Assembly (NCBI GenBank): GCA_951812955.1
Contig: OX638340.1
Coordinates: 2,016,001 to 2,080,000 of the forward strand
Length of the DNA: 64,000 nt
DNA from: an uncultured Gemmatimonadota bacterium
Lineage (GTDB): Bacteria > JAAXHH01
Reading direction: 5' to 3'
Below, one piece after another: positions 5,865-63,365 of this stretch. The notes below the pieces were generated by a model. The model was not told where the DNA came from. It ran no database searches and saw only the letters and a program-made list of their open reading frames with translations. Position 1 is the stretch's first letter; each line of letters begins with the position of its first letter. A program made the translations under genes and the position numbers.

Positions 5865-6884
5865 CTAACCCGCCTCCACCAGCCTGCGCGCGGTGAGACG
5901 ACGGTTCACCTGGTCAAGTACGACGGCGACGATGATCGCGCATCCGATCACGACCCACTCGTAGTTCTGGTCCAGGTGCAGGGTGCGGATGGACTGACGG
6001 ATCAGGACGATCAGCATGGCGCCGAGCATGGCGTTGACCGCGCTGCCCCGGCCGCCGCGTAGACTCGCGCCTCCGACGACTGCCGATGCGATGACGTATA
6101 GTTCATATCCGGTTGCGTCGGCACAGGAGGCCGAACCGTAGTAACTACTGCCCACCAGTGCGGCGATGCTCGCTGTAAGGCCCGATACCACGTACACGCC
6201 CACCAGGATTCGGTCGATCCTGAGGCCGGCATACCGGCTGGCCTCCAGGTTGCCGCCCACGGCGAATATGTGGCGCCCCATGACCGTACGGGACAGGTAC
6301 ACGGCGCCCGCGGCGGTGATGACAAGCATGATGATCATGGGCATTGGGTAAAGCGCATCGGAACCGAAGGATAGCTTGATCACATCCGTCAGCGCCTGCG
6401 GCACGAGGATGCTCTCCGCCTCGCTGATTACGAAGGCTATGCCACGGAATACCCACATCGTGCCAAGTGTTACGATAAAGGGATGTACGCGGAGTCCGAC
6501 CACCATGACCCCGTTCAACAGGCCGCACAGGAGGCCGAGACACAGACAGACCAGGACGGCCAGCATGACCACGGATAAGGGACTATCCGGCGCCATGGAC
6601 CGCAATACCATGGCGGTCAATACACCGGACAGCGCGTAGATCGAGCCGACCGATAGATCGATCCCTCCTGAGATAATCACCATGGTCGCCCCGACCGCCA
6701 TGATCACGAAGAAACTGGCGTCGGTCGCCGTCTGCATCAGAGTGCGGGAATTCAGGAAGTTGTTGACGAGTTCACCCGTCGAACGGTCCACGTGGTATCC
6801 TGCGAAAACGGAGAGTACCGCACCGAGCAGCAGGATGACGAGGAGCAAGCCTGTTTGCTGTGAACCGAGCAGGATACGAAGCAT
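5865..6884 (-). CDS. Sugar ABC transporter permease (RbsC/branched-chain-like, ~10 TM helices)
   Basis: 339-aa highly hydrophobic ORF with ribose-type permease character. First gene of the minus-strand operon (permease, then binding protein, then ATPase). Confidence 0.8.
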   Translation of the reverse strand: MLRILLGSQQTGLLLVILLLGAVLSVFAGYHVDRSTGELVNNFLNSRTLMQTATDASFFVIMAVGATMVIISGGIDLSVGSIYALSGVLTAMVLRSMAPDSPLSVVMLAVLVCLCLGLLCGLLNGVMVVGLRVHPFIVTLGTMWVFRGIAFVISEAESILVPQALTDVIKLSFGSDALYPMPMIIMLVITAAGAVYLSRTVMGRHIFAVGGNLEASRYAGLRIDRILVGVYVVSGLTASIAALVGSSYYGSASCADATGYELYVIASAVVGGASLRGGRGSAVNAMLGAMLIVLIRQSIRTLHLDQNYEWVVIGCAIIVAVVLDQVNRRLTARRLVEAG

Positions 6885-7130
6885 GAATGGGTCGGTGTTC
6901 CAGGCGTTCGCCAGGTTTCTGGATGTGATTCGGATGTCCTGGAATGGTACGGAAGCCCCGGATTAAATCAAGGAAAACGTGCAGTTGGTCAAGCACGCCG
7001 GGCGGGTCGTCAGACATGCCGAAAACCGTTCGATCGGTCGCAGGAAACTTCGCCAAAGAAAAACCCCGACATGCGTCTGCGGACATGCCGGGGTCGTGTT
7101 TGTAAGATCAGATTGCGCGGTGCCGCCGAG

Positions 7131-7469
7131 TCAGGACGCCTTCTTGTCCTCCCGTTCCTCATCCTCGTGCCGCAGTTCTTCTTCCCGGTCCGCTATGCTC
7201 TCCTGCGACGCCTTGACCCGTTCCAGAATGCCATTCACCTCCGTATCTCCCGACACGTCGGTGATTCCTTCCTCGACCACCATCTGGTGTACACGGCCGC
7301 CAAGTTCGGTCAACTGGTTGCGGATATCGGCGCGGGCCGACTGAATTTCAAGCTTAATCCGTCCTTTCCGCGTGAGGTCTTCCGCCATGTCCAGCGCGCC
7401 GGACAGGCTTTTGCGCACGGTTTCGAACGGGCCGTCCAATTCCGACTTGATCGTTTGCCAGAGGTTCAT
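7131..7469 (-). CDS. Hypothetical small coiled-coil protein
   Basis: 112-aa ORF with a good RBS (AAGGAG 7 nt upstream of ATG). Charged, heptad-like composition. No recognisable motif. Confidence 0.4.
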   Translation of the reverse strand: MNLWQTIKSELDGPFETVRKSLSGALDMAEDLTRKGRIKLEIQSARADIRNQLTELGGRVHQMVVEEGITDVSGDTEVNGILERVKASQESIADREEELRHEDEEREDKKAS

Positions 7470-7595
7470 GATGCAACTCCTTTTCCTGGTGCCTTCGTGG
7501 GTCTTTGAATCGCGGTTCGGCGGACGAAAGGTCTTTACAGGTTAGACGTTCGTTTTGCCGTCCGGGTTTCAGTATACCGCAAGCGAGAAACCGCG

Positions 7596-8285
7596 TCAAC
7601 GATAGAGCGCGTAGGCGACTATGTTGATCCCCATTCGAAAGGCGGTCTCCCGTTTCGCCGGCGGATCGTTGTGGGTCTTTTCGTCGGCCCAGCCGTCACT
7701 GACATTGCTTTCGTACGTGTAATACACTACCAGCCGTCCGTCGTGGAAGAGGCCGAATCCCCGCGGCGGTTTGCCATCGTGTTCGTGATGTTTGGGCGGG
7801 CCGGACGGGAAGTCGTAGATGATGTGATAGATCGGATGGTCGAAAGGCAACTCGACAAAATCCTGGTCGGGAAAGACGCGCTTCATTTCCCGACGAAATG
7901 CCCGGTCCATGCCGTAATCGTCATCGGCATAGAGAAACCCGCCGCGCGTCAAGTACTTACGCAGGTTGCGGATTTCCGGCTCGGTCCACTTCACTTCTCC
8001 GTGGCCGGTCATGAACAGGAAGGGTGAAGAGAACAACAGATCATCGGTCAGGGTTACGACACGCTGATCCAGATTCGTCTCTATGCCGGCGCGCAGTTGC
8101 AGTTCACGGGCCAGGTTGGGAATCGCCTCGGGGTCGTTGTACCAATCGCCCCCGCCGTCGTACTTCATCCGCGCAATGGACAGCCTGCCGTTTTCGTTCT
8201 CGGCTGCGCGCCCGTAAGAAGCCGTCCACCCGGAGGCGAGGCCGCACAGCAGGAGCGCGGTCACGCTTCTGAGGAAGGAGTTCAT
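7596..8285 (-). CDS. DUF4159 domain-containing secreted protein
   Basis: Signal peptide begins at the internal Met (MNSFLRSVTALLLCGLASG). Motifs FLFMTGHG and GGFLYADDDYGM are recognised from DUF4159 proteins. The longer Pro-rich N-terminal extension (to 8387) is probably not translated. Confidence 0.55.
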   Translation of the reverse strand: MNSFLRSVTALLLCGLASGWTASYGRAAENENGRLSIARMKYDGGGDWYNDPEAIPNLARELQLRAGIETNLDQRVVTLTDDLLFSSPFLFMTGHGEVKWTEPEIRNLRKYLTRGGFLYADDDYGMDRAFRREMKRVFPDQDFVELPFDHPIYHIIYDFPSGPPKHHEHDGKPPRGFGLFHDGRLVVYYTYESNVSDGWADEKTHNDPPAKRETAFRMGINIVAYALYR

Positions 8286-8537
8286 CGCGGGAGGCTCCGG
8301 ATCATCTGCGACCGCCGGGCCTGGCGGGCCGGGCTCTGCCGCCCGTGCGAGGTCCGGAGGCACGCACGCGCTGTCCGCCGCCGGCAAGTGCCATCAGATA
8401 GACCAGGCCAATCGCGACTAAACCCAGAATAACCGTACCGATCACGCTGAAACCAATCGTCGCCAGCATACCGTCTCCTTACAGTTGATGATGCGTCCAA
8501 GGGATACAGCCCTCAATCAAGATCCCCGAGGTTTGCT

Positions 8538-9542
8538 TCACCCGTCGACTCCCGCGGGCCGCCCGCTGTCTTTCAGGCTCCAGTCCAGCAGACGCTTCAT
8601 GTCCGTGAACCGTGTTCGGCTGGTCGGTCCGCCAAGTATGACGGCGTAAATGTCATCTCCCGAGTCTCCACGCGCACGCATGACGAGACAGTATCCGGCC
8701 CGGCGGATGTAACCTGTCTTGCTGCCCATGCTCTCCCACTGACTTTGAAACACCCTGTCGCGCACCAGCCGATTGGTGGTCCGTATAGTATGCGTCCGCC
8801 TGTTCGTACCAAACCTGTGCTCCCTTGCAAACAGGACTTCCGCCAGTAATTCATCCTGCAGCGCGGTCCACAGAAGGGCTACGCAGTCCACCGCCGAGGA
8901 AACATTACCGGCGTCCAGCCCGGTAGGTTCGGTAAATCGGGAGTTTGCCAGACCAAGTGATGCCGCAGTTGCGTTCATGCGGTTCGCGAATGCATCGATG
9001 GTAAGGCCCGATGCGCGTGCCAGTGCGCGCGCCGCTGCGTTATCCGAAGCGACCAGGGTTGCGTAAAGCAGGTCCTTCGCCGAGACCTGTTCCCCGAACC
9101 TGAGTCGTGTCCAGTTAGCCCGGTATACGTCCTGTCGTGAAATGCTGACCCGCTTATCCAGATCCGGATCCATCCGCATATAGGTCACCGCGGTCATCAG
9201 TTTCGTGATACTCGCGATCGGGAACGGCGACGTGGCATTCTTCTGATAGATCACCTCGCCCTTCTGCATATCTATGACAAGCGCGGCCCGGGAGCGTACG
9301 CGGATTCCGCGGTCGCGCGCCGTTGACCCGGCGGTCTGCGGTTCAGCCCTTCCGGGAGCCGCTTCCGGGGCAGACGGTACGGGGGGATATACGTCATCGT
9401 TGCGGACTTCAGCCCCGTTCGATACGGCCTCCGGTTCTGATCCGAAGACCGGTACCGGGTTCACGGAAACTGAAACGGCGAGAAGCACCAGAGCGCACGT
9501 AGCCCAAGCCGTCCTGTAACGGGTCGAAACGGCATTGTCCAT
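8538..9542 (-). CDS. D-alanyl-D-alanine carboxypeptidase (peptidase S11, PBP5/6 family)
   Basis: SxxK (SITKLMT), SDN (VASDNAAA) and KTG (SKTGY) active-site motifs. Signal peptide present. Confidence 0.85.
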   Translation of the reverse strand: MDNAVSTRYRTAWATCALVLLAVSVSVNPVPVFGSEPEAVSNGAEVRNDDVYPPVPSAPEAAPGRAEPQTAGSTARDRGIRVRSRAALVIDMQKGEVIYQKNATSPFPIASITKLMTAVTYMRMDPDLDKRVSISRQDVYRANWTRLRFGEQVSAKDLLYATLVASDNAAARALARASGLTIDAFANRMNATAASLGLANSRFTEPTGLDAGNVSSAVDCVALLWTALQDELLAEVLFAREHRFGTNRRTHTIRTTNRLVRDRVFQSQWESMGSKTGYIRRAGYCLVMRARGDSGDDIYAVILGGPTSRTRFTDMKRLLDWSLKDSGRPAGVDG

Positions 9543-9576
9543 AGGCTGGGATTATAGGAAGGGGGATGTACCTAAG

Positions 9577-11127
9577 TCAAGGTGATTCAAGCCGGAAATC
9601 CAGACTGGCCTGCAGGGAAGGTACATCCCTGTCCAGGCCATCTTCATCCTTCGAGACCGACTGGCCATCTCCGACGGGCTGAAGATCGATATGGACCCTG
9701 ACCTGGCGGTCCTCGATACTGAACGAGGAATAGGACAGGTCCTGAGGGAGGATTTTCAATCGGCAGTCGAAGATCCGGTTTTCGGTAATTTCGGAGAGTT
9801 CAATCGTGGGCGAAGTCACTACCCGCACGATCTGGTCAATTTCCATTTCCCGGCCGGTTATGGGTACCGAGGGCGGATCAACGGTGACCCGCACGATTTC
9901 CAGGCCCTCCGGCAATTTGCCCGCCAGTTCGTGATCGATCATGATCCGTCTGTTCACGATTCGATCGGACCTGATGGTGAGGCTTCTCGGATCGATCGAG
10001 GTGGCGTCGACCCCGAAAGGCAATTCTACATTTGCTTCCGTGAGCGGCATGGTGTGGGTCCCGGGTTCAATATCGTCCAGATCGACCATGACGCGTACTT
10101 GGTCCGACGTCAGGGTTGAAATACTGCCCTGTGGGCCCCGAACCCTTACGTTCACCTCGCTGGTCGAATTGCTGATCAACTCGATATTGGTCGGAATGTT
10201 CTGAAATTCCAACGCGGCTGTTATGGCTATTTCGGAGGTGTGCTGGCCGATCAGGGTGAACCACAACAGGCAGGAAACCCCGATCGAGGCCAATTTGGCG
10301 GTGAGGCTGCTGCGATTGAGCCGGAATCCCGACCGGAGCGCGAAGATCTTCGCCATGGCCTCCCTCAGCGACGGCCTGCTTCGTGGTATCTCGATCGGCA
10401 GCAACGATTTCTCCAGCGTCTGCCAGAGTTTTTCGCGGTCGGCCACGGCGGTGATATCACCGTTGGACGCCACGGAAACCTCGCCGCTCTCTTCGGACAC
10501 CACCACGCAAAATGTATCGCCGAGTTCTGAAACCCCCAGTGCCGCCCGGTGCCGCGTGCCGTACCGGGGCGGGAGATGGTCCCTGGACGAAAGCGGCAGG
10601 TAGGTGCCGGCTTCGACCACACGGTCCTTCTTCACGATAATCGCGCCATCGTGTATTGGCGAGGCGGGATGAAAGATGCTGACGATCAGTTCCTGGCTTA
10701 CGAGACTGTCGAGTTTGATGCCGTGCTGCACGGCGCCGGTAATCCCGGTCGCCCTGGGGAAGACCAGCAGGCCGCCGATGCGCTTCTCGGACAGTTCGAA
10801 ACAGGCCTCGGTGATCTCCTTCAGAATGCGACGGGAGACCGGGTTGTTCTTGAACCTGAAGATTACCAGGGGACTCACTCTCTCCAGCAGTTGCCTGATC
10901 TCAGGCTGGAAGACCACGATGATCAGTAGGAGAATAACACCGAGGAGGTACTGCAGAATCTGGGTGGTAAGGAGGAGTCCGCTCCAGTTCGCGATACTGT
11001 AGAGGATACCCAGACCGCCGAGACCGATCAGGATATGATAGGCCCGCGTGCCCTCCAGCCACATGTAAAGGCTGTAGATCAACGCCGCTATGATGAAAAT
11101 ATCCAGCAGGTTGACTAGATCAAACAT
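9577..11127 (-). CDS. cdaA: Diadenylate cyclase CdaA fused to CdaR/YbbR-like regulatory domains
   Basis: Three N-terminal TM helices followed by a DisA_N domain (HDGAIIV...GTRHRAALGVSE). This is followed by about 250 aa of YbbR-like repeats in the same polypeptide (516 aa total). Confidence 0.8.
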   Translation of the reverse strand: MFDLVNLLDIFIIAALIYSLYMWLEGTRAYHILIGLGGLGILYSIANWSGLLLTTQILQYLLGVILLLIIVVFQPEIRQLLERVSPLVIFRFKNNPVSRRILKEITEACFELSEKRIGGLLVFPRATGITGAVQHGIKLDSLVSQELIVSIFHPASPIHDGAIIVKKDRVVEAGTYLPLSSRDHLPPRYGTRHRAALGVSELGDTFCVVVSEESGEVSVASNGDITAVADREKLWQTLEKSLLPIEIPRSRPSLREAMAKIFALRSGFRLNRSSLTAKLASIGVSCLLWFTLIGQHTSEIAITAALEFQNIPTNIELISNSTSEVNVRVRGPQGSISTLTSDQVRVMVDLDDIEPGTHTMPLTEANVELPFGVDATSIDPRSLTIRSDRIVNRRIMIDHELAGKLPEGLEIVRVTVDPPSVPITGREMEIDQIVRVVTSPTIELSEITENRIFDCRLKILPQDLSYSSFSIEDRQVRVHIDLQPVGDGQSVSKDEDGLDRDVPSLQASLDFRLESP

Positions 11128-11252
11128 CGGTGTGGATTCCCCGGGCGTGGATTATGTTTTGCCATACTGAGGTTGACAGGATTTCACGCATATGAAAGAT
11201 AAGTCAAAATGGGACGCTTGCCAATAACAACGATTCCCGGACCGGATCGCCG

Positions 11253-12038
11253 TCAAACAGCCTGCCCGCTCCGGGATGGGGGCACTGTACGTTCGCTCCG
11301 GGATGGGGATGCCGCCCGATCGTCGCGGGATGCAGTTGCCGCACGGTCGCTCCGGGATGGGGGCGCCGCACGGTCGCCGGTCCGCAGCGGAGGCAGGGTC
11401 AGGACGTTGCTGAAGGCCGTTCCGCCCGAAACGACGAATTCCAGGGCTTCCTCCACGGGCAGGTCCACGGGTATCACGTCCCGCCGAGGCACGATCACGA
11501 CGCGGCCGGCCGCGGGATTGGGTGTGTTGGGAACGAAGACGCTGACCATATTCTCGCGATCGTCCTCACTGGGGATCTCCCCGGCTATGAAAGCGATCAT
11601 CCACGCCCCGCGGCGCGGGTACTCCACCAACACCGTCTTCCATGTGCGGGTCTCACCCACCTTCGCGAAGGAGTCCAGCAGTTTCTTTACCGGGTGGTAG
11701 ACTCTTCGTGCGACGGGCAGCCGCATCATCTGGTCCTCGAACCAGGAAATCAACCTGCTGCCCAGAACGTTCGACGCTACGAAGCCGGCCAGGTAGATCA
11801 CGACCAGCATGAGCAGAATTCCCAGTCCCGGTATGCGGGTATCCAGGTCCAGCAGTCCCCGGATGACCGGTTCGGCGAACGAGTCCAGCCAGGTCAGTAG
11901 CCAACTCAGTATGGCGACCGTGGCGGCGAGCGGGATCAGCACGAGCAATCCCGACACCATCGTTCGCTTCACGTTCTGACGGATACGCGCTATCGCCGAA
12001 GGGCGCTTCAAATTGGAATCGAGATGGAAGGTGGACAT
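11253..12038 (-). CDS. DUF502 family membrane protein with repetitive Arg/Ser/Asp-rich C-terminal tail
   Basis: GLLVLIPLAATVAILSWLL motif and overall layout match DUF502. The C-terminal about 40 aa are encoded by the imperfect 27-30 bp tandem repeats. Start taken at the internal Met (MSTFHL); the ORF could extend to 12089. Confidence 0.6.
   Translation of the reverse strand: MSTFHLDSNLKRPSAIARIRQNVKRTMVSGLLVLIPLAATVAILSWLLTWLDSFAEPVIRGLLDLDTRIPGLGILLMLVVIYLAGFVASNVLGSRLISWFEDQMMRLPVARRVYHPVKKLLDSFAKVGETRTWKTVLVEYPRRGAWMIAFIAGEIPSEDDRENMVSVFVPNTPNPAAGRVVIVPRRDVIPVDLPVEEALEFVVSGGTAFSNVLTLPPLRTGDRAAPPSRSDRAATASRDDRAASPSRSERTVPPSRSGQAV
11263..11400. repeat. Imperfect 24-30 bp tandem repeats (CGCTCCGGGATGGGG core) encoding the C-terminal tail of the DUF502 protein
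   Basis: Four consecutive units beginning CGCTCCGGGATGGGG, CGCTCCGGGATGGGGAT, CGCGGGATGCAG, CGCTCCGGGATGGGGG. They translate (minus strand) to RS/DR-rich repeats. Confidence 0.6.
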
Positions 12039-38673: not shown

Positions 38674-40644
38674 TCACCGCCCGGTTCGCGCGAAAGCAAC
38701 GAGCGACGCTTCTTCCCCTGAACCCGTTGCGATGACGACGAACTGCCGACCCGACCGGGTACGGTACGTCATCGGGTTCCCGTTTGCAGGATACGTCGTC
38801 CCGCCGCGCCAGATCTCGGCGCCGGTCGTCTTGTCGAAGGCGTACAGGTACGGATCGCCGCCGCCGAGGAATACGACGCCGCCCCGGGTCACCATCGGCC
38901 CGGAGTTCCCGATCGTGCCCATCCGCTCCGGCAGGTCGACACCGCTAAGCAACGGATGCTCGCGGATCTCCTCGCTACCTTCCCCGAACGGCACCCGCCA
39001 CGCAATCTCTCCCGCGTGAAGGTCAATCGCCACCAGGTGCGCGTAGGGTGGTTTGGTGAGCGGGATCGGGCCGAGTGGCCTCTCTGGGGCCTCCGCGGCA
39101 CCTGGGCCGCCGACCTCCCTGTACATGACGAGCGTCGCGCCAAAGGGACAGTTGTTGCTGTATTCCACGTCGACGCGCGGGTCGTCGCCCGTATTCTCGC
39201 AGAGCTGGTTCGTGTCGGCCTCCTCCGAAGTCCGCACGTACAGTATTCCGGTCTCGGGGTCGAAGGCCGCCCCGCCCCAGTTCGCTCCGCCGCTCGCGCC
39301 CGGGCGCTGGAGCGTCCCCCGGAGACTCGGCGGGGTGAATAGAGGACCCATCCGAAACTGCTTCATCTCTGCCACCGCGAGCGCATGGATCTCCGGTGTC
39401 AGGTCGTTCGCGTCGTCGAGCGACACCCCCTGCCTGCCGAATGGCGGCGGTTTGGTCGGGAACGGCTGCGTCGGATACAGCACCTCGCCAGGCACGTCCG
39501 TGGTCGTGTCCACGGCACGCTCCTCGATCGGCCATACCGGCTCACCTGTGACCCGGTCGAGCACGAATGTGAAGCCGTTTTTAGCTACTTGGGCCACCGC
39601 GTCGATTTCGCGGCCGCCCACCGTGATCGTCACCAGGTTCGGCGCCGCGGCCAAGTCGTAGTCCCACACGCCGTGGTGCACGGTCTGGAAGTGCCACCGC
39701 CGTTCGCCTGTGCGTGCGTCGAGACACACGAGGGACTCGGCGAAAAGATTCGCCCCCGGGCGTCGGCCTCCCCAGTAGTCGCTGCTTGGCGTGCTCGTCG
39801 GCGCATAGAGGAGTCCCCGCTCGGCGTCGAGCGACATCAGTCCCCACACGTTGGCGTGACCGCTATAACGCCAGGACTCGTCCTCCCAGGTCTCTGCACC
39901 GAAGTCGTCGCCTGATTGCGGGACAGTGAAGAATACCCAACGACGCTCGCCCGTTCGTACGTCGAAGGCCTGCACGGTTCCGGGCGGGTCAAACTTTCGC
40001 TGCACCCCGTCGGGCACCCGGCTCCCCACGATGACCAGATCTTCGAACACCACCGGAGGCGAGGTCTGGTCAAACTCATATCGGCTCACCTCGCGGCCAT
40101 GTCCCCTGGTCAACAGCACGCTCCCGTTCTCGCCAAAGTCCCTGACCAGTTTTCCGGTCACAGCGTTGATCGAATACAGCCGATCGCGGCTGTTGAGGAA
40201 TACACGGACAGCGCCTTCGTCTTTCCAGATAGCGATGCCCCGGTGCTTGAATCCGGTCGGCCCCGCACCTTCCTGCCCACCCTCGTACGCCCTGGGATCG
40301 AAAGCCCAGAGCACTACGCCAGTTTCGGCGTCAAGCGCAACGACGCGCGTGTACATGGTCGTCAGGTAGAGGACGTCACCCATCATGACGGGCGTTGCCT
40401 GGAAAGGCCCCGGTCGCGTGCCGTATTCCTGGAGGGGCGTCTCGTTTGGCTTCCACTCCCAGACGATCTCCAGATCACCGGCGTTGGCCGCCGTTATTTC
40501 TGCCGCCGCCGAGTACTTGGTGTGCTCCTGGTCGGACCCGACAAAGGGCCACTCGGCCATGACTGTCGGTTCCTGGGCGACCGAATTCCCTGTGTTCGCG
40601 AGGGAAAATGATATCAATAACGCTGTTGCAAGAATTCGTTTCAT
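38674..40644 (-). CDS. PQQ-dependent dehydrogenase, periplasmic (glucose/quinate dehydrogenase-like 8-bladed propeller)
   Basis: Signal peptide. N-terminal EWPFVGSDQEHTKYSAAAEITAANAGDLEIVWEW matches the quinoprotein xDxxxxRYSPLxQI...L..AW signature. Repeated W-containing propeller motifs; C-terminal AFDKTTGAEIWRG. Confidence 0.7.
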   Translation of the reverse strand: MKRILATALLISFSLANTGNSVAQEPTVMAEWPFVGSDQEHTKYSAAAEITAANAGDLEIVWEWKPNETPLQEYGTRPGPFQATPVMMGDVLYLTTMYTRVVALDAETGVVLWAFDPRAYEGGQEGAGPTGFKHRGIAIWKDEGAVRVFLNSRDRLYSINAVTGKLVRDFGENGSVLLTRGHGREVSRYEFDQTSPPVVFEDLVIVGSRVPDGVQRKFDPPGTVQAFDVRTGERRWVFFTVPQSGDDFGAETWEDESWRYSGHANVWGLMSLDAERGLLYAPTSTPSSDYWGGRRPGANLFAESLVCLDARTGERRWHFQTVHHGVWDYDLAAAPNLVTITVGGREIDAVAQVAKNGFTFVLDRVTGEPVWPIEERAVDTTTDVPGEVLYPTQPFPTKPPPFGRQGVSLDDANDLTPEIHALAVAEMKQFRMGPLFTPPSLRGTLQRPGASGGANWGGAAFDPETGILYVRTSEEADTNQLCENTGDDPRVDVEYSNNCPFGATLVMYREVGGPGAAEAPERPLGPIPLTKPPYAHLVAIDLHAGEIAWRVPFGEGSEEIREHPLLSGVDLPERMGTIGNSGPMVTRGGVVFLGGGDPYLYAFDKTTGAEIWRGGTTYPANGNPMTYRTRSGRQFVVIATGSGEEASLVAFARTGR

Positions 40645-41376: not shown

Positions 41377-41661
41377 CGGTCGTGCTAGACGGGGAGTTAG
41401 CGGTGCCCTGTAACCCGCAATCCGCTACAGCGGGGTCGAATTCCCATCCCAAGGATCGCACTTGCGTCGCCGGTATGCGTTACAGCCGGTATTGAAAGTC
41501 AGGTCCTGCGCAACGTGACAACGCCCAACTCCGTCAGGACCGGAAGGTAGCAGCGGTAAGCGACTGAATCGTGTGCCGCGGGAGCGCCTGGCCGGAGCCG
41601 GCGGTACGGATGCCCCGATACGAGGAGATTCGAGGGTGGGTGCACGACCGCTTAACTGTTT
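41377..41661 (+). ncRNA. ffs: Signal recognition particle RNA, long (Bacillus-type) form with Alu domain
   Basis: 5' GGTCGTGCTAGACGGGGAG...GGTGCCCTGTAACCCGCAATCCGCTACAGCGGGGTCGAATTCCC closely resembles the B. subtilis scRNA Alu domain from memory. The S-domain core GTCAGGACCGGAAGGTAGCAGC...GTGTGCCGCGGGAGCGCCTGGCC matches the 4.5S consensus with a GGAA tetraloop. The 3' end GGGTGCACGACC pairs with the 5' end. Sits immediately upstream of dnaX, as in Bacillus. Confidence 0.8.
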
Positions 41662-58201: not shown

Positions 58202-58276
58202 GGGCGATTAGCTCAGTTGGTTCAGAGCGCATGCCTTACAAGCATGAGGTCACTGGTTCGAATCCAGTATCGCCCA
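58202..58276 (+). tRNA. tRNA-Val (anticodon TAC)
   Basis: Acceptor GGGCGAT/ATCGCCC, anticodon stem CATGC/GCATG, loop CTTACAA, T-arm ACTGG TTCGAAT CCAGT. Confidence 0.8.
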
Positions 58277-58288
58277 TGCAGCAAATTC

Positions 58289-58363
58289 GGGGGCGTAGTT
58301 CAATCTGGTTAGAGCACTGCCCTGTCACGGCAGAAGTTGCGGGTTCGAGTCCCGTCGTCCCCG
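58289..58363 (+). tRNA. tRNA-Asp (anticodon GTC)
   Basis: Acceptor GGGGGCG/CGTCCCC, anticodon stem CTGCC/GGCAG, loop CTGTCAC, T-arm GCGGG TTCGAGT CCCGT. Confidence 0.8.
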
Positions 58364-58421
58364 TTTATCTCGATCGATAGCCCGTCGAACATGCATGGTT
58401 CCGGCGGGCTATCTTGATTAT

Positions 58422-58505
58422 GCCGGAGTGGTGGAATTGGTAGACGCGAGGGACTCAAAATCCCTTGACCGCAAGGTCGTGTCGGTTCGAGTCCGACCTC
58501 CGGCA
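58422..58505 (+). tRNA. tRNA-Leu (anticodon CAA), long variable arm
   Basis: Acceptor GCCGGAG/CTCCGGC, anticodon stem AGGGA/TCCCT, loop CTCAAAA, 15-nt variable arm, T-arm GTCGG TTCGAGT CCGAC. Confidence 0.8.
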
Positions 58506-58596
58506 TCCCGATCCGTCGCCGGACGGGTCCTACCGGGCACGGTAGCATCCCGAATGCGGCACGACCGCCGGTTACCACGCGGATTCCGCTTTTCAG

Positions 58597-60150: not shown

Positions 60151-61224
60151 TTGCAGATCGGCCTCGTCGGCCTGCCCGGTTCCGGGAAAACCACGTTGTT
60201 CAACGCGCTGGTGCGAGCCAACGCCGAAACCGGGGCGTTCACGGGCAAAAACAAGGCCAACCGGGGGACGATAAAGGTTCCGGATCAACGGGTTACCCGA
60301 CTTTCGAGCCTCTTCAACCCCCTCAAGACCACCTTCGCCACCGTGGAATACCTCGATATCGGCGGTATAACCGCGGGATCCGGAAAACAAGAGGAGCAGC
60401 AGGGCGACGGAGGATTGAACGACCTGCGCAACATGGACGTGCTGGTGCATGTCCTCCGCGGGTTTCCCGACCTCTCCAATACGCCCGTTACCCCCCGCGA
60501 GGATTTCGAAACGGTGGAGCTCGAACTCGCCATCGCCGATCTCGAGATCATCGAGCGCCGGCTGGGGCGCCTATCCAAGGAAGCCCGGTCCACCAAGAGA
60601 CCGGAACTGGTGCGTGAATGGCAACTGCTTGAACAGTGCAAGGAGGAAATCGAGGGCGGCGGAGTCATCCGGAACCTCGAATTCGTTCCGGAAGATGAAA
60701 AAAGGCTGAGGGGCTATCGTTTTCTGTCCCAGAAACCCGTTCTGCTGGTGCTGAATATCCCCGAGGATAACCTGGGCCGGGAGGTGCAGGACGTGGAAGC
60801 ACTTCGCGATTACACCGACTGCAAGGACGTACTGGTCCTCTCCGCCAGGGTCGAAATGGAGATCGCCCAGCTCGACGAAGAGGATGCCGGCGCCTTCCTG
60901 GAAGACCTGGGCATTGGCGAATCCGCCCTGGACCGAATGATTATCGCCTCGTACGGGCTGCTGAACCTGATCTCCTTTTTCACGGTGGGCGAAGACGAGG
61001 TAAAGGCCTGGACCGTCACGAGAGGCGTCACGGCGCCCAAAGCGGCCGGGGCGATCCACTCCGACCTTGAACGGGGGTTCATCCGGGCCGAGACGCTGGA
61101 ATGTCAGACGCTGATCGATCTCGGCGGATTGCAGGCCGCGAAAGAGCAAGGTGCGCTGCGCGTGGAAGGCAAGCAATATGTCGTCCAGGACGGCGATGTG
61201 ATTAACGTGAGATTCAGTGTTTGA
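60151..61224 (+). CDS. ychF: Redox-regulated ATPase YchF (Obg-family GTPase, OLA1)
   Basis: G1 motif GLVGLPGSGKTTLFNAL and a C-terminal TGS domain. TTG start with GGAGGA 7 nt upstream. Confidence 0.85.
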   Translation: MQIGLVGLPGSGKTTLFNALVRANAETGAFTGKNKANRGTIKVPDQRVTRLSSLFNPLKTTFATVEYLDIGGITAGSGKQEEQQGDGGLNDLRNMDVLVHVLRGFPDLSNTPVTPREDFETVELELAIADLEIIERRLGRLSKEARSTKRPELVREWQLLEQCKEEIEGGGVIRNLEFVPEDEKRLRGYRFLSQKPVLLVLNIPEDNLGREVQDVEALRDYTDCKDVLVLSARVEMEIAQLDEEDAGAFLEDLGIGESALDRMIIASYGLLNLISFFTVGEDEVKAWTVTRGVTAPKAAGAIHSDLERGFIRAETLECQTLIDLGGLQAAKEQGALRVEGKQYVVQDGDVINVRFSV

Positions 61225-61349
61225 TCGCGCCGGAATCATGCGTTGAAGATTTCGCTTGTCAACCAGTAAGCCAGGTCGATATCATAGAATACCCGTTCTG
61301 CCCGTGACTACCGGGACTAATTCCATCACCTGAAAATGGATCGAGGATA

Positions 61350-61925
61350 ATGAAAATCCGAACCCGCTTCGTGATCGCGCTGATCCTGGCCGGGGCCCTG
61401 TCGTGGGCTTCGCAGGCCGGCGCCCAGGTCGGTACCAGCGCCAGTTTCAATCCGGAGCCGCTCACCCTCGTAGATTTCAAGAAGGCATTCAACGGCGATA
61501 CGGGCAAGGTTCGCCTCGTCCTGATGTTCTCTCCTACGTGAGGCCACTGCATAAGCGGCGCCGGGGTGGCGCAGCAGGACATACTGAAACGGTATTCTTC
61601 CGACGACCTCCGGGTCTACGTGGTTTGGCAGCGCATACTTGCTGGAGATTCGGTTAATACGGCGCGGATGGCGGCGCGTCAGGTGTTCAGCGACAAACGG
61701 GTCAGCCAGATGTGGGACCCCGCCCACGCGCTGGGGTTATGGTATAAGCAGTCGGGTGACCTGGAGCACAAGGATCCCATGGTATGGGACGCTTACTTCC
61801 TCTACGGCGCGGATTCCGAATGGAAGGACGCGCCTACCGGGCTGATCGACGCCGGTACCACGGTGTGGAACCTGAGAGAACAGCTTTTGAAATCGGTTGG
61901 ATCTACGATGGAGTCCGGAGACTGA
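61350..61925 (+). CDS. Candidate secreted thioredoxin-fold (TlpA-like) selenoprotein; in-frame TGA at 61539-61541 would encode Sec in a U-G-H-C motif
   Basis: Two same-frame ORFs (61350-61541 and 61566-61925) are separated only by TGA. Read through, they give a signal peptide plus GKVRLVLMFSPT-U-GHC, aligning with the TlpA/thioredoxin pattern GKVVLVNFWASWCGPC. A GC hairpin with a GGGGU apical loop begins about 13 nt after the TGA, in the position of a bacterial SECIS. Confidence 0.45.
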
Positions 61926-63365
61926 TCATCCTTCCAGGCTGAGGAGGAAGGGTTCCTCGAATGCCTGGACCAGCCATTGCATGAAGCGGGCGCCGTCCGC
62001 GCCGTCTATGAGCCGGTGATCATAAGAGATCATCAACGGCAGCATGAGGCGGGGCTGAAACGCGCCGTCGATGTAAACCTGTTCCATGCGGCTGCGGGCG
62101 AGGCCGAGGATGGCCACGTCCGGCGCATTCACGATCGGTGCGAAGAAGGTTCCGCCGAACCCACCCAGGTTCGAGATCGTGAAAGTACTTCCCTGCATGT
62201 CGTCCGGCGAAAGCTTCCTGTCCCGCGCCCGGCCGGCGATCTCCGCCAACTCGATGGACAGCTCGATCATGTTCTTCCGGTCGACGTCCCGAATTACCGG
62301 CACGACCAGGCCGCGGTCCGTATCCACCGCCACACCCACGTGGTAGTATTTCTTGTAGACGATTTCGTGGCTTGCCATGTCGACGCTGGCGTTGAACCGT
62401 GGGAACCGCTTTAGCGCCGCGGCCACGATCTTCAGGGCGATTGCCGTCATGGTCAGTTTGCCGCCTGCGGCTTCGGCCGCGGGGCCGAACTGTTTGCGCA
62501 GGGCTTCCATATCGGTGACATCGGCCTTGTCCCCGTAGGTGACGTGGGGGATATTCGTCCACGCGGCGGACAGGTGCTCCGCGGCGGCCCGGCGCAGGTT
62601 GCTCATCGGCTCGGTTTCTACCGGGCCCCATTTGGAGAAGTCCGGCAGAGGCGCCGAAGGAGCGGGACCGGAAGTCGCCCCCCGGCCGGCGCTCAATTGC
62701 CTGGAATGTGATTTGACGTCTTCGACGGATATCCGGCCGGCGGGACCGGTCCCCGGTACCTGGCCGACGTCGAGCCCGATCTCCCGGGCAAAGCGGCGAA
62801 CGGAAGGCGCCGCTGGTACAGGCGCGCCTGAAGAGACGGCCGGAGCGGGCGGTATTGTCGGCGATGTCGGTGTCGGCGGCGTCGGTTCCTCCGCGGGACC
62901 AGTTTTCGCGGCAGGTGGTGCGCCGGTCTCCGGTGGTGCCTGTGTGGATGAATCCGCCTCTCCGCCGGCGTCCGCCTTGCCATCTCCTACAGTAGAGGAA
63001 GGCTCACCGGCAACTGTCTCCGAGGCCTTGGCAGCGGGCGCATCGGCAACCGTCTCCGGGGCCTCGGCAACAGGAGCTTCGGCCTCCGCCTGTCCGTCCG
63101 TTTCCGTTCCGGCGGCGGTCTCACTCCCCGCATCTTCGTACATGAGCACCGGAGCGCCCACGTCGGCCGTTGCGCCGTTCTCCACGAGGATTTCCGTGAC
63201 CACGCCGCTGAATCCCGACGGAACCTCGAGGTTGGCCTTGTCGGTCTCGATCTCCAGGACGGGCTGGTTTTCTTCGACTTTATCCCCGACCTCGACCAGG
63301 ATGCCGACTACGGTCCCGGCGTCTATGTTCTCGCCGAGGGCTGGAAGATTGAAAGGCATCGCCAT
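61926..63365 (-). CDS. Dihydrolipoamide acetyltransferase (E2 component of pyruvate/2-oxoacid dehydrogenase complex)
   Basis: N-terminal lipoyl domain (IETDKANLEVPS), Ala/Pro-rich linker, E3-binding domain, C-terminal catalytic domain with DHRLIDGA. Confidence 0.85.
   Translation of the reverse strand: MAMPFNLPALGENIDAGTVVGILVEVGDKVEENQPVLEIETDKANLEVPSGFSGVVTEILVENGATADVGAPVLMYEDAGSETAAGTETDGQAEAEAPVAEAPETVADAPAAKASETVAGEPSSTVGDGKADAGGEADSSTQAPPETGAPPAAKTGPAEEPTPPTPTSPTIPPAPAVSSGAPVPAAPSVRRFAREIGLDVGQVPGTGPAGRISVEDVKSHSRQLSAGRGATSGPAPSAPLPDFSKWGPVETEPMSNLRRAAAEHLSAAWTNIPHVTYGDKADVTDMEALRKQFGPAAEAAGGKLTMTAIALKIVAAALKRFPRFNASVDMASHEIVYKKYYHVGVAVDTDRGLVVPVIRDVDRKNMIELSIELAEIAGRARDRKLSPDDMQGSTFTISNLGGFGGTFFAPIVNAPDVAILGLARSRMEQVYIDGAFQPRLMLPLMISYDHRLIDGADGARFMQWLVQAFEEPFLLSLEG

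Follow-up and report, generated by a model that had tools for sequence, protein, structure and literature searches.

An in-frame TGA points to a probable exported selenoprotein of an uncatalogued thioredoxin-like family in an uncultured Gemmatimonadota bacterium

The analyzed DNA is a stretch of 64,000 nucleotides (the window) from an uncultured Gemmatimonadota bacterium (GenBank assembly GCA_951812955.1, contig OX638340.1, positions 2,016,001 to 2,080,000 of the forward strand). The gene studied here lies near its 3' end, where two open reading frames (ORFs) follow each other in the same frame: one of 63 amino acids starting with ATG (61350–61541) and one of 119 amino acids starting with GTG (61566–61925). 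The sole stop codon between them is the TGA that closes the first. An original prediction, made from the letters of the DNA alone, held that the two ORFs are parted by this single TGA and form one protein when read through, and translation across the whole region agreed with it. In the public records examined, including metagenome-assembled genomes (MAGs) annotated by NCBI, the locus is given as a 63-residue ORF and a 118-residue "hypothetical protein". On the comparative evidence below, the region is very probably one gene for an exported selenoprotein, in which the internal TGA is read as selenocysteine (Sec).

The read-through product has 191 residues (MKIRTRFVIALILAGALSWASQAGAQ...GKVRLVLMFSPT-[TGA]-GHCISGAGVAQQDILKRY...), and the translation around the internal stop runs ...GKVRLVLMFSPT-stop-GHCISGAGVAQQ.... 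The active-site context is LVLMFSPT-U-G-H-C, and the peptide across the putative Sec site is ...MFSPT-U-GHCISGAGVAQQDILK. The reading predicted earlier across the stop, TGA-GHCISG, was reproduced exactly. Judged by eye, the N-terminus has the look of a secretory (Sec-type) signal peptide, with a K/R-rich start, a hydrophobic core, and AGA before Q. By sequence inspection, members of other clades carry a signal peptide or a membrane anchor in the equivalent place. In an ungapped alignment from the TGA onward (A2, 34 distinct sequences), the Cys67 codon has the same first two bases throughout (T10 and G11), followed by C or T. The coordinates of the features are collected in Table 1.

Table 1. 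Features of the predicted selenoprotein gene and its upstream signals (positions in the window).
Feature	Position	Strand	Basis or details
Complete predicted selenoprotein coding sequence, 191 codons + stop, Sec = codon 64	61350..61925	+	Continuous frame; conservation on both sides of the TGA; single-ORF Cys homologues
UGA codon 64, predicted to be read as Sec, position 1 of U-G-H-C	61539..61541	+	TGA in 41/41 readable loci; Cys there in CxxC homologues
Cys67 codon, predicted partner of Sec64 in UxxC	61548..61550	+	Reads Cys throughout alignment A2 (34 sequences)
SECIS-type hairpin	61555..61575	+	Core stem 61558–61563 / 61567–61572 (GCGCCG / UGGCGC), loop GGG 61564–61566
Predicted signal peptide, MKIRTRFVIALILAGALSWASQAGA before Q	61350..61424	+	By eye: K2/R4/R6 n-region, hydrophobic core, A-x-A cleavage motif
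Shine-Dalgarno-like GAGGA, 2 nt 5' of ATG	61343..61347	+	Direct sequence reading
Sigma-70-like promoter candidate TTGTCA-18-TATCAT, ~65 nt 5' of ATG	61256..61285	+	10/12 consensus positions; consensus match alone
Terminal stop of the gene, TGA	61923..61925	+	Direct reading

Conservation of the TGA was examined first at the protein and then at the DNA level. The read-through protein, with Cys replacing the stop, matched 23 protein clusters, and all of them corresponded to the downstream half only (108–124 residues). The DNA around several of these clusters contained a same-frame upstream ORF of 63–83 residues, which ended with TGA directly before x-x-C. When loci were scanned with one genome per species, 43 were obtained and 41 were readable at the TGA position; every one of the 41 had the motif [SA]PT-TGA-x-x-C. 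Their source MAGs belonged to Gemmatimonadota, Dormibacterota, Chloroflexi/Anaerolineales, and Acidobacteriota (Pyrinomonadaceae and Terriglobales), and thus to at least four phyla. The TGA was retained down to approximately 33–40% protein identity with the window protein. Conservation at the protein level spanned both flanks of the TGA and the eight codons preceding the annotated GTG (G-H-C-I-S-G-A-G). Complete genomes with the gene include OY762445.1, OZ241920.1, OY843748.1, OZ220749.1, OZ241838.1, and OZ253560.1, and the gene is also on ctg587089 of ENA record ERZ25069191 and ctg60449 of ERZ25072854.

The isolate names of the nearest relatives (loci L012–L033; APA_bin, IRC1_bin, Plut_, SB0665_bin, and chromosome assemblies of a symbiosis project) suggest marine sponge or coral hosts, and the submitters' labels for this clade vary between Gemmatimonadetes, Latescibacterota, and Zixibacteria. 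A few decayed or partial copies were also seen. L053 (~9995–10320) has a frameshift a short way past the UxxC motif. L052 (1–222), partial and with indels, is the second copy in the Dormibacterota MAG of L034, and in L054 (10001–10093) the C-terminal remnant alone is kept. The frameshift and the two fragments look like genuine decay.

To relate the TGA to a sense codon, homologues having Cys were collected. A profile of the downstream half was compared with 1.84 billion representative proteins (cut-off E ≤ 1e-3) and gave 1253 proteins, which are cluster representatives (~1250 clusters at 50% identity). Among the best 150 of the 1253, at least 76 start within 30 residues of the RVYVVW strand, which is the pattern expected of gene calls cut at the TGA, and at least 17 are full-length proteins with SPT-C-P-x-C. 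A second search, seeded by the Cys forms, added 148 proteins, all unnamed and none with a Pfam domain. The Cys-form homologues are encoded as single ORFs and likewise bear N-terminal signal peptides, and both Cys columns are invariant in their alignments. In the BLASTP alignment of the window protein with P0024, its closest full-length Cys homologue, Cys32 stands opposite position 64. The earlier proposal that the TGA takes the first Cys position of a CxxC motif, together with its suggestion that homologues be checked for Cys there, was borne out by these alignments and by the TGA in all readable loci. An in-frame UGA aligned to the first Cys of CxxC is the classic Sec/Cys signature. The motifs of the family are SPT-[U/C]-x-x-C, RVYVVW, WDP, and VWDAYFLY.

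Some database entries have other residues at the Sec position: W in P0030 and P0054, G in P0058, and S in P0166 (SPTWPVC, SPTGVEC, SPTSGDC). They may be genuine substitutions, or else the product of gene callers that applied genetic code 4 or 25 to a TGA.

A GC-rich stem-loop at about 61555–61575, some 13 nt after the TGA, had been predicted as a selenocysteine insertion sequence (SECIS), and it was located exactly there. Two additional G-C pairs (61555–56 / 61574–75) extend the core stem across a 1 × 1 mismatch. The lower stem begins 13 nt 3' of the TGA, the hairpin proposed to tether the Sec-inserting factor lies 16–33 nt downstream of codon 64, and the apical loop follows the UGA by 22 nt. 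The GTG "start" of the downstream ORF (61566–61568) falls in the loop and the 3' arm, so the placement of this start codon inside the hairpin also held. RNAalifold, when run on A2, recovered the same stem independently as the only helix (columns 20–25 with 29–34, 3-nt loop). Standard pairing was found in 99.5% of the stem cells (n = 34), and the value dropped to 27–57% when the 3' partner was slid by 1–3 columns. Two stem pairs covary (compensatory changes CG<->GC in 12 sequences and CG<->UA in 2). The loop-closing pair is C-G in 21 sequences, G-C in 12, and G-U in the window. The second pair changes from C-G to U-A in L049 and L050 through two synonymous substitutions (Gly GGC to GGU and Val GUG to GUA). 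The third codon positions within the stem (columns 21, 24, 30, and 33) are identical in 31–34 of the 34 sequences, and those beyond the stem vary freely. The loop starts with G in 34/34, followed by G or U. Local folding energies of the Sec forms range from −8.3 to −14.1 kcal/mol.

As a control, 15 Cys-form loci from a metagenome scan with a Cys-form alignment were examined in the same register. In thirteen of them, just 2–4 of the 6 stem positions are paired, and the local folding energy is 0 to −3.7 kcal/mol. Locus L074 has 4/6 positions paired and an off-register hairpin of −6.0 kcal/mol. The remaining locus, L076, has all six paired (−8.0 kcal/mol); it is a marginal family match (E = 2e-4) and probably not a true family member.

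In the published model of bacterial SECIS (bSECIS) elements, the loop has 3–9 nt and the stem 4–16 bp, a G stands in the first two loop positions, the distance from UGA to the loop is 16–37 nt, and the minimum free energy is at most −7.5 kcal/mol (PMC13188914). The hairpin of the window family lies within every one of these limits (3 nt, 6 bp, G-G/U, 22 nt, and −8 to −14 kcal/mol). The spacing and shape claimed for it in the original prediction stood up to this comparison, and the conserved register, the compensatory changes, and the synonymous constraint add to it. With the bSECIS consensus and the Escherichia coli fdhF element it shares the position in the ORF right after the UGA, a 6-bp upper stem, and a 3-nt loop with G-[G/U]; it differs in being very compact, with a triloop and no bulged U. 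The fdhF loop is presumably about one codon nearer to the UGA than the loop of the window hairpin.

The fold was assessed with P0024, which is 38% identical to the window protein over 156 residues, using an alignment of 75 rows. The AlphaFold2 model (pLDDT 92.3, pTM 0.89) has the element order beta-alpha-beta-[C32-x-x-C35 at the start of helix 33–47]-beta ... beta-alpha-beta-beta-alpha. The core of a thioredoxin fold (beta-alpha-beta ... beta-beta-alpha), with the redox motif at the helix N-terminus after the first core strand, is present in the model. In Foldseek, its top matches were glutathione peroxidase (GPx) enzymes and the ResA/CcmG group. The best matches in the PDB were Hyr1, GPX5, GPX8, and GPX4 (E = 2.5e-5 to 1e-3), with TM-scores of just 0.44–0.57, and a profile search of the PDB found no solved relative better than E = 0.027. 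The family is, on this model, a distinct branch of the thioredoxin-like superfamily that appears structurally nearest to TlpA-like extracytoplasmic reductases. The TlpA/ResA/thioredoxin context that had been proposed for the active site was therefore upheld in part: the fold and the motif at the helix N-terminus agree in the model of the Cys homologue, and membership in a TlpA or ResA family of Pfam by sequence was not found.

Comparison with known families was done at the sequence level. At a cut-off as loose as E ≤ 10, the window protein matched no Pfam-A family, GSHPx, AhpC-TSA, Redoxin, and Thioredoxin_8 included. When six Cys-form members were searched at E ≤ 1, four had no match, P0029 had a chance-level one to HypD (E = 0.33), and P0033 matched outside this domain. 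NCBIfam release 20.0 (June 2026), which includes the selenoprotein annotation models of NCBI, gave only a chance-level pdi_dom match for the window protein (E = 0.18). Seven diverse single-domain members had no NCBIfam match at E ≤ 1, and three further members matched unrelated models at chance level (E = 0.03–0.06). The C-terminal stretch of P0033 has a sub-threshold match to the NCBIfam "DF family (seleno)protein" NF049942 (40 bits, cut-off 70). The 119 families of prokaryotic selenoproteins listed in a review of May 2026 each carry an identifier from Pfam, NCBIfam, or CDD (PMC13188914). None of the Pfam and NCBIfam models of these families matches the window protein or seven other members; the families having a CDD identifier only (cd02966 and cd02970) were outside the comparison. 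Two TlpA-like entries of the catalogue are defined solely by cd02966, and one of them has the motif U-G-C (PMC13188914), which differs from the U-x-x-C of the window family.

Catalogued thioredoxin-fold UxxC selenoproteins include Sec-thioredoxin, the thiol:disulfide interchange protein PF13098, DsbA-like and DsbG-like (NF041057) proteins, Redoxin PF08534, GOS_C NF045500, the HUIPC-motif protein NF047660, and SaoT NF040730 (PMC13188914, Table 1). The window family is like them in having UxxC at the thioredoxin active site, Cys homologues, and a SECIS-type hairpin in the coding region directly downstream, whereas their Pfam and NCBIfam models miss it. With TlpA, ResA, CcmG (DsbE), and the C-terminal domain of DipZ it shares the thioredoxin fold, the N-terminal beta-alpha extension, the dithiol-type motif at the N-terminus of helix 1, a predicted N-terminal signal peptide or membrane anchor, and members fused or translationally coupled to CcdA-family electron carriers. 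It differs from them in an identity of only 11–18%, the lack of a Pfam or NCBIfam match, motifs of its own, and Sec in place of the first Cys in most close relatives of the window protein. We conclude that this is a new, uncatalogued family of a well-known kind, which sequence comparison sets apart from the families modelled in Pfam and NCBIfam, those defined only by cd02966 or cd02970 aside. The gene itself appears to be genuine and unannotated to date, and it would represent an uncatalogued selenoprotein family.

In Gemmatimonadota, the gene order is fixed and says little about function: M20 peptidase, ychF, the selenoprotein gene, and the convergent E2 and E1 genes of pyruvate dehydrogenase (PDH). 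In other clades, the surroundings are different. In L045 (Terriglobales MAG, 992–2514), the end of the Sec-form gene (Sec-site TGA at 1313) and the start of a CcdA-family gene at 1675–2514 are joined by an ATGA, in which the stop of the former and the ATG of the latter overlap. The coupled gene encodes a membrane protein of 279 residues, whose relatives are annotated as CcdA, several of them with PF02683 or PF13386. In P0137, a membrane region homologous to this CcdA gene (tblastn E = 5e-7) is fused N-terminally to the thioredoxin-like domain; P0137 had no Pfam match. Fusion or coupling to CcdA-family proteins is usual for TlpA/ResA-type reductases.

Other features of the window were noted alongside. 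The selenoprotein gene (+) and the PDH E2 gene (61926–63365, −) converge without a spacer, and together their TGA stops read as the palindrome TGATCA. The junction (61923–61928) showed no hairpin of the terminator type. A tRNA Val-Asp-Leu cluster (58202–58508) lies approximately 3 kb 5' of the gene, and the same cluster is upstream in most Gemmatimonadota loci. The remainder of the window is housekeeping in nature, with ABC-transporter, FtsH, DnaX, and alanyl-tRNA synthetase genes and no selenium-related ones. It also contains a diadenylate cyclase (DAC) fused to YbbR domains (9577–11127, −), a large dehydrogenase dependent on pyrroloquinoline quinone (38674–40644, −), and the bacterial large signal recognition particle RNA (41380–41647). 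A second selenoprotein was sought among the TGA-split ORFs of the window with coding-like GC content at third codon positions, and the 44 candidates obtained could not be discriminated in sequence of 62% GC.

A number of results weigh against the selenoprotein interpretation or against the function favoured for it. With ARAGORN, neither the 64-kb window nor any of 45 flanking loci yielded a tRNA-Sec, and tblastn with E. coli SelA, SelB, and SelD gave no match at E ≤ 1e-3; the searches for Sec machinery covered the window and ~0.8 Mb of flanks of related genomes only. No literature specific to Sec use in Gemmatimonadota or sponge symbionts was found. No SECIS family of Rfam was matched, either with gathering thresholds over the whole window or at E ≤ 10 on 61480–61680, where only a chance match to a small RNA appeared. 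Bacterial SECIS elements are poorly covered by Rfam. The hairpin is short, and 49 of the 1735 TGA trinucleotides in the window (2.8%) precede a hairpin of equal quality; an 81-nt fold of the region was no more stable than shuffled sequences (z = 0.46). The Cys-form control is imperfect, with slightly different residues encoded in the stem region (G-A-x-W-I/V), and the fold model is that of a homologue, P0024, rather than of the window protein. As for the electron donor, the Gemmatimonadota gene lies between ychF and PDH E2/E1 with no redox partner nearby, CcdA was not found near the gene in the window or in Gemmatimonadota loci, and the CcdA link consists of the one adjacency and the one fusion described above, both in other clades. 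A hairpin in a single sequence is weak evidence, and the comparative data carry the argument. Because of these data (TGA conservation, stem pairing, the synonymous freeze, and the contrast with the Cys forms), the observation stands far above chance.

Two alternatives concern the decoding of the TGA. If it terminates translation, the products would be an exported peptide of 63 residues and, from the GTG at 61566, a second, cytoplasmic protein of 119 residues, or the locus would be a pseudogene or a sequencing error of a Cys-type gene. Every public gene caller splits the locus in two, and no Sec machinery was found in the window and the flanks searched. Nevertheless, termination is very improbable, given that the same TGA recurs in all readable loci from independent short- and long-read assemblies and from several phyla, and that the eight codons from the TGA to the GTG are kept as protein. 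Both halves are needed for the thioredoxin fold: in the homologue model, strand 1 and the turn with the active site belong to the part before the TGA or to the TGA position itself. The Cys homologues are single ORFs, and a true pseudogene copy looks different, being frameshifted (L053). The UGA could also be read through without Sec, either by reassignment in the lineage or by insertion of Trp or Cys from a near-cognate tRNA, and the hairpin would then do no more than slow termination. The few relatives recorded with W or G, be they real sense codons or gene calls under an alternative code, would fit this explanation. It is hardly credible all the same: TGA is an ordinary stop codon here and not reassigned, because the gene itself, ychF (61222–61224), and PDH E2 (61926–61928, minus strand) all end in TGA. 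Furthermore, the UGA stands exactly at the catalytic Cys of CxxC and is followed by a bSECIS-fitting hairpin with an invariant loop G, and these two together make an established Sec-site signature. The TGA conservation, the Cys homologues, and the TGA stops of the neighbours thus led to the rejection of reassignment, of two separate genes, and of a pseudogene or an error in sequencing. With purifying conservation of a UGA at the catalytic Cys position across phyla and a covarying SECIS-type hairpin, a working Sec system is hard to avoid.

The other two alternatives accept the selenoprotein and differ in its function. In one, the Sec-Cys pair would be mainly a ligand of soft metals, above all Hg(II), and the protein, as a selenol counterpart of MerP/NmerA, would bind extracytoplasmic mercury or organomercury or pass it on instead of reducing protein disulfides. 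Its support comes from neighbours and fusions. In L044 (Anaerolineales MAG, 6025–11864), an apparent mercury-resistance locus, the genes for a MerB-like protein, MerA (TIGR02053, 513 bits, above the curated cut-off), a second MerB-like protein, a CopZ-type Cys-rich metallochaperone, the Sec-form protein, and a MerR-type helix-turn-helix protein lie on one strand. A MerB-like gene is found ~1.1 kb from the copy in L046, and in P0110 the family domain is fused in front of a MerA (516 bits) ending in CCAG. In P0101, the domain is followed by what was judged by eye to be a pyridine-nucleotide-oxidoreductase-like start. P0033, P0064, and P0079 have tandem copies of the domain, the first two of them with an HMA domain as well. 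The two-chalcogen motif might bind Hg(II) as in MerP/NmerA, and in some cases the domain takes the place of NmerA in a MerA fusion or the gene belongs to a merA-merB locus; the fold of MerP/NmerA is ferredoxin-like (HMA), unlike the thioredoxin-like fold of this family. However, mer genes stand beside only 2 of ~60 loci and near neither the window gene nor any Gemmatimonadota locus. The domain in the MerA fusions would be cytoplasmic, against the predicted signal peptide of the window protein, and a disulfide reductase keeping Mer thiols reduced would yield equal associations. A primary role in mercury handling is therefore possible but unlikely. In the other alternative, the protein would be a thiol or selenol peroxidase of the GPx/Prx type, with Sec64 as the peroxidatic and Cys67 as the resolving residue. 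The best Foldseek matches in the PDB are GPx enzymes, a family with Sec-containing members (GPX1/4), and Sec or Cys stands at the equivalent strand-to-helix turn; "S-P-T-U-G" after the beta strand resembles "A-S-x-U-G" of GPx. The invariant W-D of VWDAYFLY may be comparable to the W-N-F motif of GPx. Against this, GPx has a lone peroxidatic residue, part of a catalytic Sec/Cys-Gln-Trp-Asn tetrad, where the window family has a UxxC pair, a spacing typical of disulfide oxidoreductases. No Pfam GSHPx (PF00255), AhpC-TSA, or Redoxin match was obtained at E ≤ 10, and the chance of a peroxidase is considered slim.

The favoured function of the predicted selenoprotein is that of a CcdA-fed extracytoplasmic selenol/thiol-disulfide reductase. 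In other family members, adjacency or fusion to CcdA and MerA suggests redox chemistry of thiols and selenols, or the handling of metals, outside the cytoplasm. During decoding, the ribosome would arrive at UGA codon 64, where a SelB-type factor carrying Sec-tRNASec would be tethered by the downstream hairpin, and Sec would be inserted in place of termination. The signal peptide would direct the chain through the secretory translocon to the periplasm, and the mature selenoprotein would have ~165 residues after processing. Sec64 and Cys67 (U-G-H-C) are placed by the homologue model at the N-terminus of the first long helix, and the pair would most likely alternate between selenolate/thiol and selenenylsulfide. 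We infer a role as a thiol-disulfide reductase of the TlpA/ResA/CcmG type, which would be recharged by a membrane electron carrier of the CcdA/DsbD type.

Splitting of the annotation at the UGA loses the active-site half of the protein, and there is no Pfam or NCBIfam model for the family. If the interpretation is true, the family is invisible to current annotation because pipelines split the gene at the UGA. A U-tolerant family model would mend many records at once and add to the 119 catalogued prokaryotic selenoprotein families. The family would place Sec use in Gemmatimonadota (of marine sponge or coral hosts, according to MAG names), Dormibacterota, Acidobacteriota, and Chloroflexota. Sec-rich organisms have been described as predominantly anaerobic (2026 review, PMC13188914). 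The broadest proposal combines several claims: the window protein would be the founding member of a large family of exported proteins with a thioredoxin fold, Sec-containing for the most part, which would act as an extracytoplasmic trap or relay of Hg(II)/organomercury or soft metals to MerA/MerB-type systems and reveal unrecognised Sec use in largely aerobic soil and symbiont phyla. Taken as a whole, it is speculative and decidedly unlikely. The links to CcdA and MerA/MerB lead to functional hypotheses that are open to testing, and a compact SECIS in a family with paired Sec and Cys forms would offer a system for asking why an exported redox protein prefers selenium.

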